DNA of 64,000 nt, taken from assembly GCF_055900595.2 (NCBI RefSeq), contig NZ_CM148325.1. One strand, given 5' to 3'. Positions 15,301 to 25,356 of the stretch are shown piece by piece. Each line of letters begins with the position of its first letter. Positions within the stretch are counted from its first letter, which is position 1. The position numbers were made by a program, and so were the translations under genes. The notes below the pieces were generated by a model. It was given only the letters and a program-made list of their open reading frames with translations. It made no database searches and was not told the DNA's origin.

Positions 15301-16032
15301 ATGAAGATGTTGCGCGATCCGCTGTTCTGGCTCATTGCTTTGTTTGTGGCACTGATTTTCTGGCTGCCTTACAGCCAGCCGCTGTTTTCTGCCTTGTTCC
15401 CACAACTGCCACGCCCCGTTTATCAGCAAGAAAGTTTTGCTGCTCTGGCACTGGCTCATTTCTGGCTGGTGGGAATTTCGAGTTTGTTTGCGGTGATCAT
15501 TGGCACAGGTGCCGGAATTATTGTTACTCGCCCGTGGGGCGCGGAATTTCGCCCACTGGTGGAAACTATTGCCGCCGTTGGGCAGACTTTTCCGCCCGTT
15601 GCGGTGCTGGCGATTGCCGTTCCGGTGATTGGGTTTGGTCTGCAACCCGCGATTATCGCCTTGATCCTGTACGGTGTGCTGCCCGTCCTGCAGGCGACAC
15701 TTGCCGGGCTGGGAGCGATTGATGCCAGCGTGACAGAAGTTGCTAAGGGTATGGGAATGAGCCGTGGACAGCAACTGCGTAAGGTCGAGCTACCGCTGGC
15801 GGCTCCGGTGATTCTGGCGGGTGTGCGAACTTCGGTGATTATCAACATTGGTACGGCGACGATCGCCTCAACGGTAGGGGCCAGCACGCTGGGTACGCCC
15901 ATCATCATCGGGCTTAGCGGATTTAATACCGCGTATGTGATCCAGGGGGCGTTACTGGTGGCACTGGCGGCGATCATCGCAGACCGCCTGTTTGAAAGGC
16001 TGGTGCAGGCGCTTAGCCAGCACGCAAAATAA
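15301..16032 (+). CDS. yehW: ABC transporter permease YehW
   Basis: 243 aa polytopic membrane protein. Confidence 0.88.
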
Positions 16033-16120
16033 AGGTATAACCTGCGAGCATGACGCCACCAATTCCGCCTAACGCCATAAAAAGGAACAGGGCGATGACC
16101 CCAATTTTAGCTATGCGCAT
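16013..16120 (-). CDS. yohO: Small membrane protein YohO (35 aa)
   Basis: Minus-strand [38 protein letters not shown] with a strong AAGGAG RBS; its 3-prime end overlaps the yehW stop region by about 20 bp (convergent). Confidence 0.6.
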
Positions 16121-16179
16121 AATGCACTCCTTATGTTAACGAAAGGATTGTACAGTAAAGCGCATTTGTTAACGAATCA

Positions 16180-16911
16180 TTAAATGCCGAGTGGGAAAAT
16201 ATCATGGCCTTGTTCCTGCCAACTGGTAAGTTGCTGCTGTTGGGCAGAGGTTCGATTTTCACCGCACCACACCAGCAATGTACGGCCTTCGAACAGTTCA
16301 GGGCGTAGTTGATTGAGCGAGTGGGCGAGGACATCAATGCGCCATCCTTGTTGACTGGCAATCCAGCCCTCTAGCCACAGACGGGTGGTATCCTGAATAT
16401 TCCAGCCAACCACCAGCGCATCTTTACCTTGTTTTTTACGTGCCGAAGCCAGACAAATGGCGATGTAGTTGATCAGTACGCCGTCGAGGATCGCCAGCAG
16501 CGCCTGGAGAGTCGGTTGTTGGCACTGAAGTCGTCGGCGCAGAGGAATAAACAGGTGCGTGGTGAGTGTCTGGGCGGGGTAATCCTGACCGCGCTCTTTG
16601 ATCCACGTTCGCAGGCTATGCAGATTGCCGCTTTGCAGGTAAGTCAGTAATGTTTCTTGCTGATCGCGCCAGCCGTTCTGCACATCAACATTTTCATTAC
16701 TGAGCAGCATTTTAACTTTGCTGACCTGCACGCCGTTGTCGATCCAGCGTTTGATCTCGCGGATCCGGTCAATATCGGCATCATTGAACAGCCGATGACC
16801 GCCGTCTGTCCGTTGCGGTTTCAGCAATCCGTAACGCCTCTGCCACGCGCGTAACGTGACAGGGTTAATATCACAAAGCAACGCCACTTCACCAATTGTG
16901 TAAAGCGCCAT
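16180..16911 (-). CDS. mlrA: MerR-family transcriptional regulator MlrA (csgD activator)
   Basis: 243 aa; N-terminal MerR HTH (MALYTIGEVALLCDINPVTLRAWQRRYGL). Confidence 0.9.
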   Translation of the reverse strand: MALYTIGEVALLCDINPVTLRAWQRRYGLLKPQRTDGGHRLFNDADIDRIREIKRWIDNGVQVSKVKMLLSNENVDVQNGWRDQQETLLTYLQSGNLHSLRTWIKERGQDYPAQTLTTHLFIPLRRRLQCQQPTLQALLAILDGVLINYIAICLASARKKQGKDALVVGWNIQDTTRLWLEGWIASQQGWRIDVLAHSLNQLRPELFEGRTLLVWCGENRTSAQQQQLTSWQEQGHDIFPLGI

Positions 16912-17132
16912 CGTCTCACCCTTGCTCGCGAGGTCCCAGTTTAACTTTAGACGCAGTTTTGCGAACCAGGTAGTTTTGCCCGTTTTTTGTTCATCTATAG
17001 GGTGATTTTATTTTTGCCAGGCGATTTTGAGTGATCGTACTCACGAATTCTCATTTTTCTGCAAGAGTTCAAAGAAAGTTAAACGCAGGCAATGTATGTT
17101 ACGCGTTTTAAAGGGAAGTGTGGTTTGCGGGT

Positions 17133-18818
17133 ATGTACGATTTTAATCTGGTGTTGCTGCTGCTTCAGCAGATGTGCGTTTTTTTAGTCATTGCGTGGTT
17201 AATGAGTAAAACGCCATTATTCATACCGTTAATGCAGGTCACGGTTCGTCTGCCGCATAAATTTCTCTGCTACATCGTCTTTTCCATCTTCTGCATCATG
17301 GGCACCTGGTTTGGGCTGCATATTGACGATTCTATTGCCAATACCCGTGCGATAGGCGCGGTAATGGGCGGCTTACTCGGCGGTCCGGTCGTCGGTGGGC
17401 TGGTTGGTCTGACCGGCGGGTTACATCGATATTCGATGGGGGGCATGACCGCGCTAAGTTGCATGATCTCGACCATCGTTGAAGGATTGCTCGGCGGCCT
17501 GGTACACAGCATCCTGATCCGTCGCGGGCGCACTGATAAAGTCTTTAACCCCATTACCGCCGGTGCCGTCACGTTCGTCGCTGAAATGGTGCAAATGTTG
17601 ATCATCCTGGCGATCGCCCGACCTTATGAAGATGCGGTGCGTCTGGTGAGTAATATTGCTGCGCCAATGATGGTCACCAATACCGTCGGCGCGGCGCTGT
17701 TTATGCGTATATTGCTCGATAAACGCGCGATGTTTGAAAAATACACTTCGGCTTTTTCTGCTACTGCGCTGAAAGTGGCTGCCTCGACGGAAGGCATTTT
17801 GCGCCAGGGGTTTAACGAAGTGAACAGCATGAAAGTGGCACAGGTGCTGTATCAGGAGCTGGATATTGGTGCAGTCGCGATTACCGATCGAGAGAAATTG
17901 CTGGCCTTTACCGGAATTGGTGACGACCACCATTTACCCGGCAAACCGATTTCTTCGACTTATACCTTAAAAGCGATTGAAACCGGTGAAGTGGTCTACG
18001 CCGATGGCAACGAAGTGCCTTACCGTTGCTCGTTGCATCCGCAATGCAAACTGGGTTCGACGCTGGTAATTCCGTTGCGTGGTGAAAATCAGCGGGTGAT
18101 GGGTACCATCAAATTGTATGAAGCCAAAAACCGTTTATTCAGTTCAATCAACCGCACGCTGGGCGAGGGGATTGCGCAACTGCTTTCGGCGCAGATCCTC
18201 GCCGGGCAATATGAGCGGCAAAAAGCGATGCTCACCCAGTCAGAGATCAAACTGCTTCACGCCCAGGTGAACCCCCATTTTCTGTTCAATGCGCTTAACA
18301 CCATTAAAGCGGTGATCCGACGCGACAGCGAACAGGCCAGTCAGCTGGTGCAGTATCTTTCCACTTTTTTCCGTAAAAACTTAAAGCGGCCTTCGGAGTT
18401 TGTTACTCTCGCCGACGAAATTGAACATGTGAACGCTTATCTGCAAATTGAAAAGGAGCGCTTCCAGTCGCGGTTGCAGGTCAGCATTGCTATTCCGCAA
18501 GAATTATCCCAGCAGCAATTGCCCGCGTTTACCCTGCAACCGATTGTGGAAAACGCCATTAAACATGGGACATCACAACTGCTGGATACAGGGCGAGTAG
18601 CAATCAGCGCCCGACGTGAGGGGCAACATTTGATGCTGGAGATCGAAGACAATGCTGGCTTGTATCAACCGGTAACCAATGCCAGCGGGCTGGGGATGAA
18701 TCTGGTGGATAAGCGTTTACGTGAACGGTTTGGCGATGACTATGGGATAAGCGTCGCCTGTGAACCTGATAATTACACCCGAATAACGTTACGACTGCCA
18801 TGGAGGGACGAGGCATGA
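17133..18818 (+). CDS. btsS: LytS-type sensor histidine kinase BtsS (YehU)
   Basis: 561 aa from [15 protein letters not shown]...; 5TM-Lyt membrane domain, GAF-like region, histidine-kinase C-terminus. Confidence 0.9.
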
Positions 18819-19534
18819 TTAAAGTCTTAATTGTCGATGACGAACCGTTAGCACGGGAGAACCTGCGCGTATTTTTGCAGGAGCAGAGTGATATTGAAAT
18901 TGTCGGCGAGTGTTCAAACGCTGTAGAAGGGATCGGCGCGGTGCATAAACTGCGCCCGGACGTGCTGTTCCTCGATATCCAGATGCCGCGCATCAGTGGT
19001 CTGGAAATGGTGGGAATGCTCGACCCGGAACATCGTCCGTATATCGTTTTTCTCACCGCGTTTGACGAATACGCCATTAAAGCCTTTGAAGAACATGCAT
19101 TTGATTATCTCCTGAAGCCAATTGATGAAGCGCGGCTGGAGAAAACGCTGGCGCGTTTGCGTCAGGAGCGCAGCAAGCAGGATGTTTCGCTGTTACCGGA
19201 AAATCAACAGGCGCTGAAATTTATCCCTTGTACGGGGCATAGTCGGATTTATTTGCTGCAAATGAGAGATGTAGCATTTGTCAGCAGTCGGATGAGCGGT
19301 GTCTACGTTACCAGCCACGAAGGGAAAGAAGGTTTTACCGAACTGACTTTGCGCACCCTGGAGAGCCGTACACCACTACTGCGCTGCCATCGTCAGTATC
19401 TGGTTAACCTCGCGCATTTACAGGAGATTCGCCTGGAAGATAACGGTCAGGCTGAGTTGATTTTGCGTAATGGTTTAACCGTCCCTGTCAGCCGCCGCTA
19501 TCTGAAAAGTTTAAAAGAGGCGATTGGCCTGTAA
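18815..19534 (+). CDS. btsR: LytTR-family response regulator BtsR (YehT)
   Basis: 239 aa from [11 protein letters not shown]...; receiver domain plus LytTR DNA-binding domain; ATGA overlap with btsS. Confidence 0.9.
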
Positions 19535-19580
19535 AAGACTGCTAAAATGGCTTTTTGCCTCATCAACACCTGAAGGCCTC

Positions 19581-20051
19581 ATGCTTAGTAATGATATTCT
19601 GCGCAGCGTGCGCTACATTTTGAAAGCCAATAATAACGACCTGGTGCGCATTCTGGCGCTGGGTAATGTCGAAGCCACTGCGGAACAGATCGCCGTCTGG
19701 CTACGCAAAGAAGACGAAGAAGGGTTTCAGCGTTGTCCGGACATTGTTCTGTCTTCATTCCTGAATGGCCTGATTTATGAAAAACGTGGCAAGGATGAGT
19801 CAGCGCCGGCACTGGAGCCGGAACGTCGCATTAATAACAACATCGTGCTGAAAAAATTACGTATCGCGTTTTCGCTGAAAACTGATGATATTCTGGCGAT
19901 CCTTACCGAACAGCAGTTCCGCGTTTCGATGCCGGAAATTACGGCGATGATGCGTGCACCGGATCATAAAAACTTCCGCGAATGCGGCGATCAATTTTTA
20001 CGTTATTTTTTGCGTGGACTGGCAGCGCGCCAGCATGTGAAGAAAAGCTAA
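19581..20051 (+). CDS. yehS: DUF1456-family protein YehS
   Basis: 156 aa from MLSNDILRSVRYILKANNNDLVRIL. Confidence 0.85.
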   Translation: MLSNDILRSVRYILKANNNDLVRILALGNVEATAEQIAVWLRKEDEEGFQRCPDIVLSSFLNGLIYEKRGKDESAPALEPERRINNNIVLKKLRIAFSLKTDDILAILTEQQFRVSMPEITAMMRAPDHKNFRECGDQFLRYFLRGLAARQHVKKS

Positions 20052-20060
20052 GACGGGCAT

Positions 20061-20087
20061 GGCGGCCATGCGAAAAACATGGCCGCC
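20061..20087. terminator. GC-rich inverted repeat between convergent yehS and yehR (putative bidirectional terminator)
   Basis: Perfect 10-bp stem ggcggccatg/catggccgcc with 7-nt loop; no clean T-run, so terminator function is tentative. Confidence 0.4.
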
Positions 20088-20093
20088 GACAGA

Positions 20094-20555
20094 TTATTTC
20101 ACTTCTTTAAAACCAGCGGCTTTCATCACCAGTTCCATTTGCGCCATAGTGATACCTTTTTTGGCATCTTCAGCAGAAACGTTGATACCTGAAATACCCT
20201 GCAGGGCTTTAAAATCAACTTTTTCCATATCGATAGTCACGTTTTCCTGAGCATAAGTATCGGTAAAGGTTAATTTTTCTTCAACGCCAGGGATATTTTT
20301 ATATTTGGCACTTAACGGCTCAAGTGTCTTGGCAGCATCTTCTTTGGTGGTTGCACCAATGGAGGCAAATTGAATTTTGGTTTCAGAAGATTGCTTAAGA
20401 ACCTTGTCACCTTTGTAGACATAGGTAATAGCAATTTCAGTACCGTTCAGATTAGCGCTAAATTTCTTCGATTCTTCTTTGTCACCGCAGCCAGCAAGAG
20501 AGAAAACCAGAACAGATGCAACAACAAGGGAAAACAGCTTATTGAAAGCCTTCAT
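20094..20555 (-). CDS. yehR: Lipoprotein YehR (DUF1307)
   Basis: 153 aa from MKAFNKLFSLVVASVLVFSLAGCGD (lipobox). Confidence 0.85.
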   Translation of the reverse strand: MKAFNKLFSLVVASVLVFSLAGCGDKEESKKFSANLNGTEIAITYVYKGDKVLKQSSETKIQFASIGATTKEDAAKTLEPLSAKYKNIPGVEEKLTFTDTYAQENVTIDMEKVDFKALQGISGINVSAEDAKKGITMAQMELVMKAAGFKEVK

Positions 20556-20686
20556 GTAAAACTCCATTTTATTTAATCAAGGAACTGGTGACCACACCAG
20601 GGGCCATATAGGATATGCCTAATACCTTGGCGTGAGCAGTCCGGAACTGGAGTAGAACTCTTTGTAAAAAGCACTATTTGTCCTTG

Positions 20687-21172
20687 TTACTCAAGCAAGG
20701 TTAATAATTGTTCGCAAAGCAAAACGCAGTTATTCATTGCATCTCCCCGTGCCTCGCCTTCTGTATTACGAAATTGTCCCAACACATGTGCCAGCCGATA
20801 AAAACCCACCGCAGTGAGGTCATTCGCCAGCAACTCTGCCTGACCAATAGCACTCTGTTCCTGATAGCGCCAGCCGTTATGGAGCAGTTGAATAAGTAAC
20901 GCCTGGCAGCGCATCAGCAACTGATGAGCGGTAGACGGCACAGGCAAAACGCTGGCAGAAGGTAGCGGTGCCACAGGCGCAGTTTCTGCGTCCAGCGCCC
21001 AGGCGAGGGTTTGCGTCATCATTACTCGTGGTTCCAGTGTCAATTGCCCCTCAGCAAAATTGATAAACCCAGAAACCAGACTAACGGGATCTTCTGTTTG
21101 TTGTAACAGAGCTGCCATGCGTTCAACAGCAAAGGGCGCACTGGCTGAAGCTGGCAGTGATAACGTCAGCAC
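20687..21172 (-). pseudogene. C-terminal fragment ORF downstream of the WGR-domain gene (different frame, no credible start/RBS)
   Basis: 161-codon frame opens 7 bp after the upstream ORF stop; the only start is a tool-assigned GTG; this frame is open back to about 21215, overlapping the end of the upstream ORF. Confidence 0.45.
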
Positions 21173-21179
21173 ATTATCT

Positions 21180-23051
21180 TCACCTTCGCCACTGATTACC
21201 TGCGCATTCTGCTTTCAGCGCGGGGAAATCGAAACGTAACAGGGCCTCAACTGCGCTTTGTGGCATTATTTTTTTTTCGTATTGTTCTTCTCCGGTTCTG
21301 CTCCATTCCTTAAACCCCAGTAGCCAAAGGATTTGCTGTTCTGGCGTTAAAGGGATGAAAGACGTTTCCCAGCTTTCCTTTTCAATTAGTGGCAGATCGG
21401 TAAATAAGGTTTGCTGTGATGCCTGATATTTCGCGATTTCACTGAATCTGGATATGTCAGTGTGACTGATTAACTCTGTAATTCCAGGTGTGATGTCAGT
21501 GACGGAAGGGATGGGAAGTACCGGTAAATCAAATACGGGTATTACATTCTTTTTCTTATTTATTGCCCACGGTGGAGCGACAAGCAGCTCTGGCAACATA
21601 TCCGCAGTGGCATACTCACATTCTTCAGCGACTGACTGAGGACGACATTCAGATAATATGCCTGCCGCCTTAGCATTAACCCAGGGAATGACGTCGCATA
21701 CTAACTCTGGCGTGACGGTAACCAGTTTGACAAGCGCGTTGCGCCACTGTGCGTCTTCATGTATTGCCAGCAAAGTTGCATAAGCGGCAATAGCCGCAGC
21801 GGGATGTTTTTGGCAGGCTTTGCTTAAGTATTCCAGGTGCTTTTTCTTGCTATTTACACCGAGGATCAGAATTTGAATCGCATCCGGGTGATTCGTTTTC
21901 CATAGCCATTTGACAAGATCTTCAGTCTCGCTGATGCGCTCGAAGAGATAAGTGGGATTGTCAGAATGCTCTTCCACAAACTCAGTAAGTATCCGGCTTA
22001 CACCGCGCACGCCATTATTCGCCAGCAACATTGCCAGATAAGCGCGAAAATCACGATGCAATGGTGGGAAGTCGTATTTTTCGGTTGTAGTGGGAGCAGC
22101 GTCATTGGTTACCACCAGTCTTAACCAGGTCATCGCAGGGACGTTTTGATCTGCATAATGTAGCGCCATAGCATTGGCAATATCCGGGCGTTCAGGGATC
22201 AGTAATGCAGCAAAAGGTTGCCGTGCGGGGGATAGCGTCGGAATAGCAGTAAGCACTTTATCCACACAGCGTTGCCACTCATCTTCTGAAGCGAGTGAAA
22301 GATGATGACATAGACGTTGATGCCAACTCGGTAGCGATTCTGCTTCGTGATTAGGTGGAATGATGGTGGTTACTGCGCCTTTTACTGGTTTATATTTGAG
22401 TTGAAGAGCGAGAAGGGCGATTTCAACGGCACTTTCCAGACCACAGCGAATGACTAAGTCATCGACCAGTTCATCTTGAGAGTAAGAGTTCCAAAAGCCC
22501 CAGAGCAATGCTGCATCAGATTGCGCACTCCCTGTCGGTTGATTACCCTGAACTCGCATTTGTAACTCAGCAAAAGCCTGCTGCCAGTTTTCTGGATAAG
22601 AGCGGTAATTATTGTCGGGGTCATATGCCCTCGTGTTATTCGCGATGCGCTTCCATATTTGGCCATCTTTGTGCAGATAATTGATATCTCTGGGGCGAGA
22701 GCGATGTGGAAAAGCAAATCGGTTAATATCGTCGGTTAGCGGAATGGCTGCATCATCAGCCAGCCATGGGCGTTTGTTTTTACTCTCAGGTGAAGTTTCA
22801 ACTTCAGGAGTGACTTTGGTGACGGGGGGGATATGTACGTTTGCCGAAGCGTCTTCCACATAGCCTTTTTTCGTTTTCTCAGCGATAAGCTTCAGTTCCG
22901 CTTTTTCCGCCGCCGCAGCATCCGCAAAGCTTTTTATCTGGCTTTGCCCTTGGGTGCCAACTTTTCCCCAACTGATATGCAACTCGTTACCTTGCTGCCC
23001 CACCGCCCAGAATTTATGCGATTTTTCGTCCTGATAGATATAACTCTTCAT
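21180..23051 (-). CDS. WGR-domain protein (MolR/YehI-like), probably truncated
   Basis: 623 aa; N-terminal WGR domain (YQDEKSHKFWAVGQQGNELHISWGKVGTQGQSQIKSF); directly downstream of metG, where K-12 carries molR. Confidence 0.7.
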   Translation of the reverse strand: MKSYIYQDEKSHKFWAVGQQGNELHISWGKVGTQGQSQIKSFADAAAAEKAELKLIAEKTKKGYVEDASANVHIPPVTKVTPEVETSPESKNKRPWLADDAAIPLTDDINRFAFPHRSRPRDINYLHKDGQIWKRIANNTRAYDPDNNYRSYPENWQQAFAELQMRVQGNQPTGSAQSDAALLWGFWNSYSQDELVDDLVIRCGLESAVEIALLALQLKYKPVKGAVTTIIPPNHEAESLPSWHQRLCHHLSLASEDEWQRCVDKVLTAIPTLSPARQPFAALLIPERPDIANAMALHYADQNVPAMTWLRLVVTNDAAPTTTEKYDFPPLHRDFRAYLAMLLANNGVRGVSRILTEFVEEHSDNPTYLFERISETEDLVKWLWKTNHPDAIQILILGVNSKKKHLEYLSKACQKHPAAAIAAYATLLAIHEDAQWRNALVKLVTVTPELVCDVIPWVNAKAAGILSECRPQSVAEECEYATADMLPELLVAPPWAINKKKNVIPVFDLPVLPIPSVTDITPGITELISHTDISRFSEIAKYQASQQTLFTDLPLIEKESWETSFIPLTPEQQILWLLGFKEWSRTGEEQYEKKIMPQSAVEALLRFDFPALKAECAGNQWRR

Positions 23052-23150: not shown

Positions 23151-23182
23151 ATAAAGAAAAGGCGCTGTCGATGCAGCGCCTT
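23151..23182 (-). terminator. Rho-independent terminator of metG
   Basis: Stem aaggcgctg/cagcgcctt with 6-nt loop, followed on the minus strand by a T-rich run, just after the metG stop. Confidence 0.65.
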
Positions 23183-23191
23183 GAAGGGGGA

Positions 23192-25225
23192 TTATTTCAC
23201 CTGATGGCCCGGTTTAGCACCGGCATCCGGGCTTAGCAGGAAGATATCTTTCCCGCCAGGACCGGCAGCCATCACCATGCCTTCGGAGATACCGAAGCGC
23301 ATTTTACGTGGTGCCAGGTTAGCCACCATAATGGTGTGACGACCAATCAGTGCCTGCGGATCCGGGTAAGCAGAACGAATGCCGGAGAAGACATTGCGTT
23401 TTTCACCGCCGAGATCCAGCGTCAGGCGCAGCAGTTTGTCAGAACCTTCAACAAACTCTGCGTTTTCGATCAACGCCACGCGCAGGTCAACTTTGGCGAA
23501 GTCGTCAAAGGTGATGGTTTCCTGAATCGGATCATCTGCCAGCGGGCCAGTAACTGGTGCGGCAGTGGCTTTCACTTCTTCTTTAGATGCTTCCACCAGT
23601 GCTTCAACCTGCTTCATGTCAATACGGTTATACAGCGCCTTGAACGGATTCACTTTGTGGCCCAGCAGCGGTTGCTGGATACCATGCCAGGTCAGTTCCG
23701 TATTGAGGAATGCTTCTGCACGCTCGGTCAGTTTCGGCAGTACCGGCTTCAGGTAAGTCATCAGCACGCGGAACAGGTTTATGCCCATCGAGCAAATTGC
23801 CTGCAGGTCGGCATCGCGGCCTTCCTGTTTCGCCACCACCCACGGAGCCTGTTCATCGACATAGCGGTTAGCCAGATCAGCCAGCGCCATAATTTCGCGC
23901 ACTGCTTTACCAAATTCGCGGCTTTCCCATGCTTCACCAATCACTTCAGCGGCATCCGTGAAGGTTTTGTACAACTGCGGGTCAGCCAGTTCGCTTGCCA
24001 ACACGCCGTCAAAACGCTTGTTGATAAAGCCCGCGTTACGGGATGCCAGGTTTACAACCTTATTAACGATATCGGCATTCACGCGCTGGACGAAATCCTC
24101 GAGGTTGAGATCGATATCATCAATGCGCGAAGAGAGTTTCGCAGTGTAGTAGTAACGCAGGCTGTCAGCGTCAAAATGATTCAGCCAGGTGCTGGCTTTA
24201 ATAAAGGTGCCGCGAGACTTGGACATCTTCGCGCCGTTCACCGTTACATAGCCGTGAACAAACAGGTTGGTCGGCTTGCGGAAGTTGCTACCTTCCAACA
24301 TGGCAGGCCAGAACAGGCTGTGGAAGTAAACAATATCTTTACCGATGAAGTGGTACAGCTCGGCGGTGGAGTCTTTCTTCCAGTATTCATCGAAGCTTAC
24401 GCTGTCGCCGCGCTTGTCACACAGATTCTTGAAAGAACCCATGTAGCCAATCGGTGCGTCCAGCCAGACGTAGAAATATTTGCCCGGCGCGTTCGGAATT
24501 TCAAAACCGAAGTAAGGGGCGTCGCGGGAGATATCCCATTGTTGCAGGCCAGATTCAAACCACTCCTGCATTTTGTTTGCCACCTGCTCCTGCAACGCAC
24601 CGCTGCGGGTCCATGCCTGCAGCATTTCGCTGAAAGAGGGCAGATCAAAGAAGAAGTGTTCAGAATCACGCATTACCGGGGTAGCGCCAGAAACCACCGA
24701 TTTCGGCTCGATCAGTTCAGTCGGGCTGTAGGTCGCGCCGCAGACTTCGCAGTTATCGCCGTATTGATCCGGGGATTTACATTTCGGGCAGGTGCCTTTT
24801 ACAAAACGGTCCGGCAGGAACATGCCTTTTTCCGGATCGTACAGCTGAGAGATGGTGCGGTTTTTAATAAAACCGTTTTCTTTCAGGCGAGAGTAGATAA
24901 GTTCTGACAACTGGCGGTTCTCTTCGCTGTGCGTCGAGTGATAGTTGTCATAGCTGATGTTAAAGCCTGCGAAATCAGTCTGATGCTCCTGACTCATTTC
25001 GCCAATCATCTGCTCCGGAGTGATACCAAGCTGCTGAGCTTTCAACATGATTGGTGTACCGTGGGCATCGTCGGCGCAGATGAAGTTGACCTCGTGGCCG
25101 CGCATTCGCTGGTAACGGACCCAGACATCAGCCTGGATGTGCTCCAGCATATGGCCGAGGTGGATTGAGCCGTTAGCGTACGGCAGTGCGCACGTCACCA
25201 GAATTTTCTTCGCGACTTGAGTCAT
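23192..25225 (-). CDS. metG: Methionine--tRNA ligase
   Basis: 677 aa from [29 protein letters not shown] (HIGH motif), KMSKS motif present; ORF-track start trimmed. Confidence 0.95.
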
Positions 25226-25356
25226 AGTAGGCATTACTTCTTAATAGTGAAAAGGGGTTAGATAGTACCAAATGGGAAAATGTTAAGTAAGTACTTCTCT
25301 ATATTCTTCAGGTAAACTATCAGCTGATGGTTTATCTATACAAAAAAGGAGTCGGG

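Follow-up and report, generated by a model that had tools for sequence, protein, structure and literature searches.

A probable deletion scar between metG and yehR that joins remnants of a WGR/DUF4132 gene and of yehQ

We analysed the interval between metG and yehR in a window of 64,000 nucleotides (nt) of contig NZ_CM148325.1 (assembly GCF_055900595.2), and coordinates given without the name of another locus are positions of this window. The interval is very probably the scar of one chromosomal deletion of about 16.5 kb, which is lineage-specific and of an ordinary kind. Two open reading frames (ORFs) lie in the interval, both on the minus strand, and they are remnants of two different genes rather than one frameshifted gene, which corrects the annotation-level reading of this locus. 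The first is the 5' part of a gene for a protein with a WGR domain and, in its intact form, a DUF4132 domain; the second is the 3' part of yehQ, which encodes a SWIM-family protein. Both pieces appear to be non-functional pseudogene remnants, and the loss of the genes between them was probably neutral or nearly so.

The junction and the two gene remnants

The distance between metG and yehR is 2,624 bp in the window. In K-12 MG1655 the two genes are separated by 14,891 bp, which hold yehF, the yehH pseudogene, yehI, yehK, yehL, yehM, yehP and yehQ, and in the closest intact relative, MFDS1022581, the distance is about 19 kb. An earlier note on this DNA, made from its letters alone, had called the interval compact (about 2.6 kb against about 15 kb in K-12); both figures are borne out, and the K-12 gene content that it gave is essentially right. 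The two ORFs described in the same note, a 623-amino-acid (aa) WGR ORF and, after a gap of 7 bp, a second one of 161 codons in another frame, are both present in the ORF list, at 21180-23051 and 20687-21172, respectively. The frame of the second ORF is +1 relative to the first. Following a TGA at 21217-21215, it is open from 21214 on, and it overlaps the first frame over 21214-21183. By computation, deleting 1 nt within this overlap would yield an ORF of 787 aa, in agreement with the fusion product of roughly 790 aa that had been proposed.

The junction was located by searching 5,426 complete E. coli genomes by megablast with the interval and its flanks, and the alignments split at query position 2193/2194. 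Left of this point they match the metG 3' end and the first DUF4132 gene; right of it, they match the yehQ 3' end, yehR and yehS. Both flanks are collinear with the intact loci and meet at one sharp junction. Base-level alignment places this junction, which is blunt and out of frame, between 21208 and 21207. The metG-proximal WGR/DUF4132 paralog (paralog 1) is present up to position 21208, which is its nt 1844 and the second position of its codon 615 (position 18193 of locus L003, that of MFDS1022581). From position 21207 on the sequence is that of yehQ, this position being the second of codon 491 (L003 34748). According to a three-way DNA alignment the loss relative to MFDS1022581 amounts to 16,554 bp, and the missing part consists of the rest of paralog 1, two more DUF4132 paralogs, yehK, yehL (a MoxR ATPase), yehM, yehP (with a VWA domain) and most of yehQ.

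The ancestor would thus have had the usual island, with three tandem WGR/DUF4132 paralogs followed by yehK, yehL, yehM, yehP and yehQ, and a single event would have joined nt 1844 of paralog 1 to the second position of yehQ codon 491, removing everything between. No contiguous microhomology was seen at the junction, the longest k-mer common to the 60 bp on either side being 6 nt and out of register. The base-level comparison revealed no insertion sequence (IS) copy, target-site duplication, direct repeat or extra sequence there, and a deletion mediated by an IS or by repeats was rejected because these features are missing from the junction. Illegitimate (non-homologous) end-joining or strand-break repair is the probable cause.

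The phases of the two genes differ by one nt at the junction. Therefore, the 623-aa ORF reads eight aberrant codons (..E CAGNQWRR stop) and stops at 21182-21180, while the yehQ tail is left as a +1-frame ORF without a start. From the codon table, this read-through tail at 21180-21207 (minus strand) is yehQ sequence read in the wrong frame. The overlap of the two frames is a consequence of the out-of-frame deletion junction and not of a recent indel within one gene, so that resequencing of 21170-21220, as the note had advised, would restore no natural protein. A programmed +1 ribosomal frameshift was also considered and rejected, since the downstream frame is that of a fragment of another, unrelated gene which the deletion placed there.

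The WGR remnant occupies 21208-23051 on the minus strand and comprises nt 1-1844 of paralog 1 (codons 1-614 and 2 nt), as determined by BLASTP and base-level alignment. In the BLASTP comparison the 623-aa ORF matches aa 1-617 of MFDS1022581 paralog 1 at 95% identity. A WGR domain (PF05406) was found at aa 8-69 with E = 7e-18, and the domain search of the ORF returned nothing else; in particular, there was no match to DUF4132 (PF13569). In the intact ortholog of about 1265 aa, DUF4132 lies at about aa 999-1182, past the breakpoint at codon 615; WGR/DUF4132 proteins of the YehI/MolR type range from about 1210 to 1273 aa. The remnant retains its native start codon and upstream region, and it may still be transcribed and translated from this start into a truncated WGR protein without DUF4132. 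A consensus promoter scan at the chosen stringency gave no sigma-70-like site upstream of the ORF, a negative that is uninformative. The label "MolR-like" used in the note suits the ORF only loosely: the identity to K-12 YehF/MolR is no more than 38% outside the WGR domain (38% over 246 aa, high in the WGR domain only), and K-12 is without paralog 1. About 40 codons preceding the junction are diverged and have no similarity to paralog 2 or paralog 3, which rules out gene conversion from either of them as the source. These codons are thus simply a hypervariable stretch of paralog 1.

The yehQ remnant extends from the second nt of codon 491 to the stop codon (20687-21207, minus strand; BLASTP and annotation by the Prokaryotic Genome Annotation Pipeline, PGAP), and its frame corresponds to codons 491-663, the C-terminal 173, of the SWIM protein YehQ. 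This frame is 94% identical by BLASTP to aa 491-652 of the intact 663-aa YehQ of MFDS1022581, and 91% identical to aa 491-614 of K-12 YehQ. The 161-aa ORF is a mechanically called subset of the remnant. Its GTG at 21172 encodes a Val in the interior of YehQ (..NVLTLSL..); the note was right to see no credible start, and the ORF is not an independent gene with a start of its own. Besides the native N-terminus and start, the remnant is without the SWIM motifs, whose matches in intact YehQ, at aa 60-88 and 160-183, are weak (E = 0.0036 and 0.24) and lie upstream of codon 491.

At 21173-21190 (minus strand), the TGA that ends the 623-aa ORF overlaps with a Shine-Dalgarno-like (SD-like) AAGGTGA lying 7 nt before the GTG at 21172, and this stop is directly preceded by the rare Arg codon AGG, in the context CGA-AGG-TGA. 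Such a context could in principle favour a +1 slip or coupled translation; here it is probably fortuitous. As a side observation, the C-terminus of YehQ is length-polymorphic. The K-12 protein is a short form of 614 aa ending in ..IGQA (L002, the K-12 locus, 15601-17445), and MFDS1022581 (L003 33277-35268) and the window remnant have the long form with about 49 more residues.

Both flanking genes are intact and on the minus strand. The left flank is metG, the gene for methionine-tRNA ligase (23192-25234; ORF list and annotated metG in matching RefSeq loci), and the right flank is yehR, which encodes a DUF1307 lipoprotein (20094-20567; ORF list and locus comparison). Just 3' of metG, a consensus scan marked a terminator-like hairpin and T-tract at 23159-23182 (minus strand) with a 9-bp stem including 6 GC pairs, which is a pattern match only.

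Carriers, lineage and recombination beside the junction

The identical junction is present in 8 of the 5,426 complete E. coli genomes, as single-piece alignments with 99.4% identity. In addition, a contig assembled from an unrelated sequencing run in the public archive (SRR28778367) matches 8,486 bp of the window at 100% identity, and the exact 623-aa and 161-aa products are found on 348 and 409 public contigs, respectively. GenBank names for the exact products include "WGR domain protein" and "putative yehQ protein", and PGAP labels the pieces in the carriers "WGR domain-containing protein, missing C-terminus" and "SWIM zinc finger family protein, missing N-terminus". Public annotation thus already represents the scar as two partial pseudogenes.

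Among the eight carriers, at least five (100117, E200086, E400634, E500002 and E600003) are isolates of the Global Enteric Multicenter Study that belong to cryptic clade I, sequence type (ST) 485, OND:H45, and six of the eight genomes are hybrid assemblies of Oxford Nanopore Technologies (ONT) and Illumina reads (PMC13064198). Because the carriers belong to cryptic clade I, the region shares only about 87-96% identity with typical E. coli. The metG-side 20 kb of the window is 99.9% identical to the eight carriers, with the next best match at 98.1%. On the other hand, yehL-yehP is present in 5,337 of the 5,426 complete genomes (98%) and altogether missing from 89, and the 90% cluster of the WGR remnant includes intact 1273-aa proteins of E. 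coli and E. fergusonii. From these two results we conclude that the long form is ancestral and the compact state derived. Between the two readings that the note had left side by side, the one of a deletion scar that removed the MoxR-ATPase/VWA genes is upheld, and the one of a simpler ancestral state with a fresh frameshift is refuted. The deletion allele probably arose within Escherichia cryptic clade I, in ST485 and its relatives.

Two homopolymers in the WGR remnant vary in length. The first is an A9 run (T9 on the plus strand) at 21269-21277 on the minus strand, recognised from the sequence and the variant C-termini of related genomes. Changes in its length account for a 594-aa variant (..EKK stop, 85 contigs) and a 601-aa variant (..EKNNNATKRS stop, 7 contigs including AP025754.1), and one of the compared loci, L008, carries +1 nt in the run. 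These variants could be real decay or, in some cases, homopolymer sequencing error. The second, seen in the alignment to the carriers, is a C7 run (G7 on the plus strand) at 22824-22830 on the minus strand. E400634 has lost 1 nt of this run, and PGAP gives the gene there as "frameshifted"; judging by alignment length, the run is shortened likewise in E500002. This 1-nt difference in two of the eight carriers was considered as a repair of the fusion frame and rejected: it sits in the C7 run at 22830, 1.6 kb from the junction.

Mismatch maps revealed that the yehQ remnant contains a crossover of homologous recombination (20996-21006), some 200 bp beyond the junction. When the window is compared with a carrier (locus L001), there are no mismatches from 26400 down to 20997, then 19 in 20996-20682 and scattered ones beyond. 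The comparison with R32_14_1F, a genome with an intact island, gives the opposite pattern: the alignment begins exactly at 21207, with 9 mismatches in 21092-21006 and then a single one down to 20365. These opposite switches place the crossover between 21006 and 20996. Above it the window matches the ST485-type deletion haplotype and below it a haplotype like that of R32_14_1F, as judged from the mismatch positions. Either the deletion allele would have been imported with its left flank, or the right flank would have been replaced. The deletion allele has thus been involved in homologous recombination, which would have taken place after the deletion itself.

Further down, at 17000-20680 (btsS, btsR, yehS and yehR), the identity of the window to the complete E. 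coli genomes of the collection does not exceed 99.3%. The mismatches to both reference haplotypes are clustered in this part, for example at 19486-19399 and 18997-18991, which suggests a mosaic of several recombination tracts.

Alternative explanations

According to the "split WGR-domain gene" of the earlier note, a 1-nt frameshift recently broke a single WGR-domain (MolR-like) gene coding for about 790 aa, and the compact locus is the simpler ancestral state. The overlap of the two frames, the 787-aa ORF obtained by removing 1 nt and the second ORF without a credible start are all as this explanation would have them. Nevertheless, we regard it as extremely improbable, and the split gene is refuted by what the two frames encode: the downstream one corresponds to the C-terminus of YehQ (94% identity), a protein of the SWIM family with no relation to the first, and the upstream ORF is the 95% identical beginning of paralog 1, whose full-length homologs run about 650 aa further, into DUF4132 and not into this sequence. 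No natural fused protein occurs among the members of the 90% cluster, and the intervening genes are present in 98% of the complete genomes. K-12, for its part, does not have the compact arrangement. An artefact of assembly or sequencing, in which the tandem DUF4132 paralogs were collapsed as a repeat and a false junction resulted, is for practical purposes excluded. Three paralogous genes of about 3.8 kb at one locus can confuse short-read assemblers, but the junction joins paralog 1 to yehQ, between which there is no common repeat. The same junction also occurs in eight complete genomes from different laboratories, most of them hybrid assemblies, and in the independent assembly of the public run.

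The deletion itself being accepted, the remnants might still be alive, with a truncated 614-aa WGR protein, a coupled or +1-shifted C-terminal fragment of YehQ, or both, being expressed and functional, or the loss of the module itself might have been selected. The WGR gene, with its native start and its upstream region intact, could be expressed, the SD-like motif and the rare codon before the stop could serve the YehQ tail, and K-12 too retains an annotated truncated WGR protein, YehF. The locus has also been repeatedly lost or disrupted in other lineages (PMC9334617; PMC12795559; strain KFu022; the 89 genomes without yehL-yehP). On the other hand, the window and the ST485 genomes show zero substitutions across the remnant, so the open ORF is uninformative on selection. 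In sublineages the C7 and A9 runs have suffered secondary frameshifts, and both proteins have lost the domains after which they are named (DUF4132 and SWIM). The position of the junction is arbitrary; independent deletions cut the WGR gene at other points (about nt 1257 in KFu022, for instance). Silencing of yehL and yehM by H-NS/StpA in K-12 (PMC3686432) is consistent with neutral loss. We therefore hold functional remnants or selected loss to be highly unlikely. In its broader form, the idea that the scar is not neutral would have the loss of the MoxR/VWA/SWIM/DUF4132 module selected in the ST485-type lineage of cryptic clade I, or the 614-aa WGR fragment, perhaps with the YehQ tail, residually active or dominant-negative. 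This is highly unlikely as well; if it were true, the repeated independent loss of the island in Escherichia and Shigella would mark a costly, conflict-type system.

Several points weigh against a neutral scar with a precisely defined blunt junction. The 623-aa ORF is still open in most carriers (348 contigs), which is expected of a young deletion and would also fit a function that has been retained. The YehQ tail has a low probability of being translated fortuitously from the SD-like AAGGTGA and the GTG at 21172, as far as the motif allows a judgement. The exact ancestral alleles at the breakpoints are lacking, and the closest intact paralog 1 (95%) diverges most just before the junction, so that 1-2 nt of microhomology may be possible there. 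The one intact protein of the 90% cluster that was compared, P0004, is only 86% identical, and MFDS1022581 thus remains the best intact reference.

The scar of a single deletion is real but ordinary, and it has little significance by itself. It does give a well-sampled Escherichia lineage that is without YehL, one of the two MoxR AAA+ ATPases of K-12, and without its VWA and SWIM partners, and the junction sequence is a convenient lineage marker.

Comparison with other metG-yehR loci

The nearest loci are those of Z0117EC0005 (NBY12_RS14490 / NBY12_RS14495) and of ST485 isolates such as E400634, which have the identical junction and PGAP partial pseudogenes. Their sequence is the same as that of the window over a stretch that starts at apbC, includes metG and the WGR remnant and ends some 210 bp into the yehQ remnant. 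They differ below 20996, where the window has 19 mismatches against them in about 315 bp, and E400634 and E500002 differ further by the extra 1-nt deletion in the C7 run.

The intact island is represented by MFDS1022581, whose flanks are collinear with those of the window. It has the three tandem WGR/DUF4132 paralogs (1265, 1264 and 1216 aa), yehK, yehL, yehM, yehP and the 663-aa SWIM protein YehQ, and differs from the window by the 16,554 bp that the latter is without. The product of yehM is a DUF5682 protein, and YehL is one of two MoxR ATPases of E. coli K-12, of unknown function (PMC3893208). When the eight intact-island proteins were compared with the PADLOC models, no match to a defence system was obtained except a marginal one to WGR_XIII (E = 0.006), and the NCBIfam search gave only a match in the WGR region, far below the cutoff.

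K-12 MG1655 has the same flanking genes and the same type of island, and its first gene is likewise a broken WGR/DUF4132 gene (yehF and the yehH pseudogene, formerly molR). Unlike the window, it keeps yehI through yehQ, although in it YehQ is the 614-aa short form and paralog 1 is missing. The broken yehF/yehH gene corresponds to paralog 2 of MFDS1022581 and not to paralog 1 of the window. Two of the three WGR/DUF4132 paralogs of MFDS1022581 (L003 16350-23954) are found in K-12 (L002 2975-6770). This suggests an older loss of a paralog in the K-12 lineage, possibly by way of the near-identical WGR-coding 5' ends.

Other lesions of the same island are known. In KFu022 (NZ_CP091677.1, locus L006 3252-6900) an independent deletion cut the WGR gene at about nt 1257 and joined it to the last 417 nt of yehP, with a frameshifted yehQ next to it. 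In the ST131 sublineage L1a, TnMB1860 is inserted in the "metG/DUF4132/yeh region" (PMC9334617), and lineages 2 and 3 of Shigella sonnei are missing a piece of about 7 kb with yehM and yehL (PMC12795559). As in the window, the same island is lost or disrupted in each of these cases, and none has a reported phenotype. The breakpoint or the mechanism differs: another gene pair is joined, a transposon has been inserted, or there are IS elements in the vicinity. Together with these lesions, the scar between metG and yehR adds to the evidence for a dispensable, H-NS-silenced island of unknown function.

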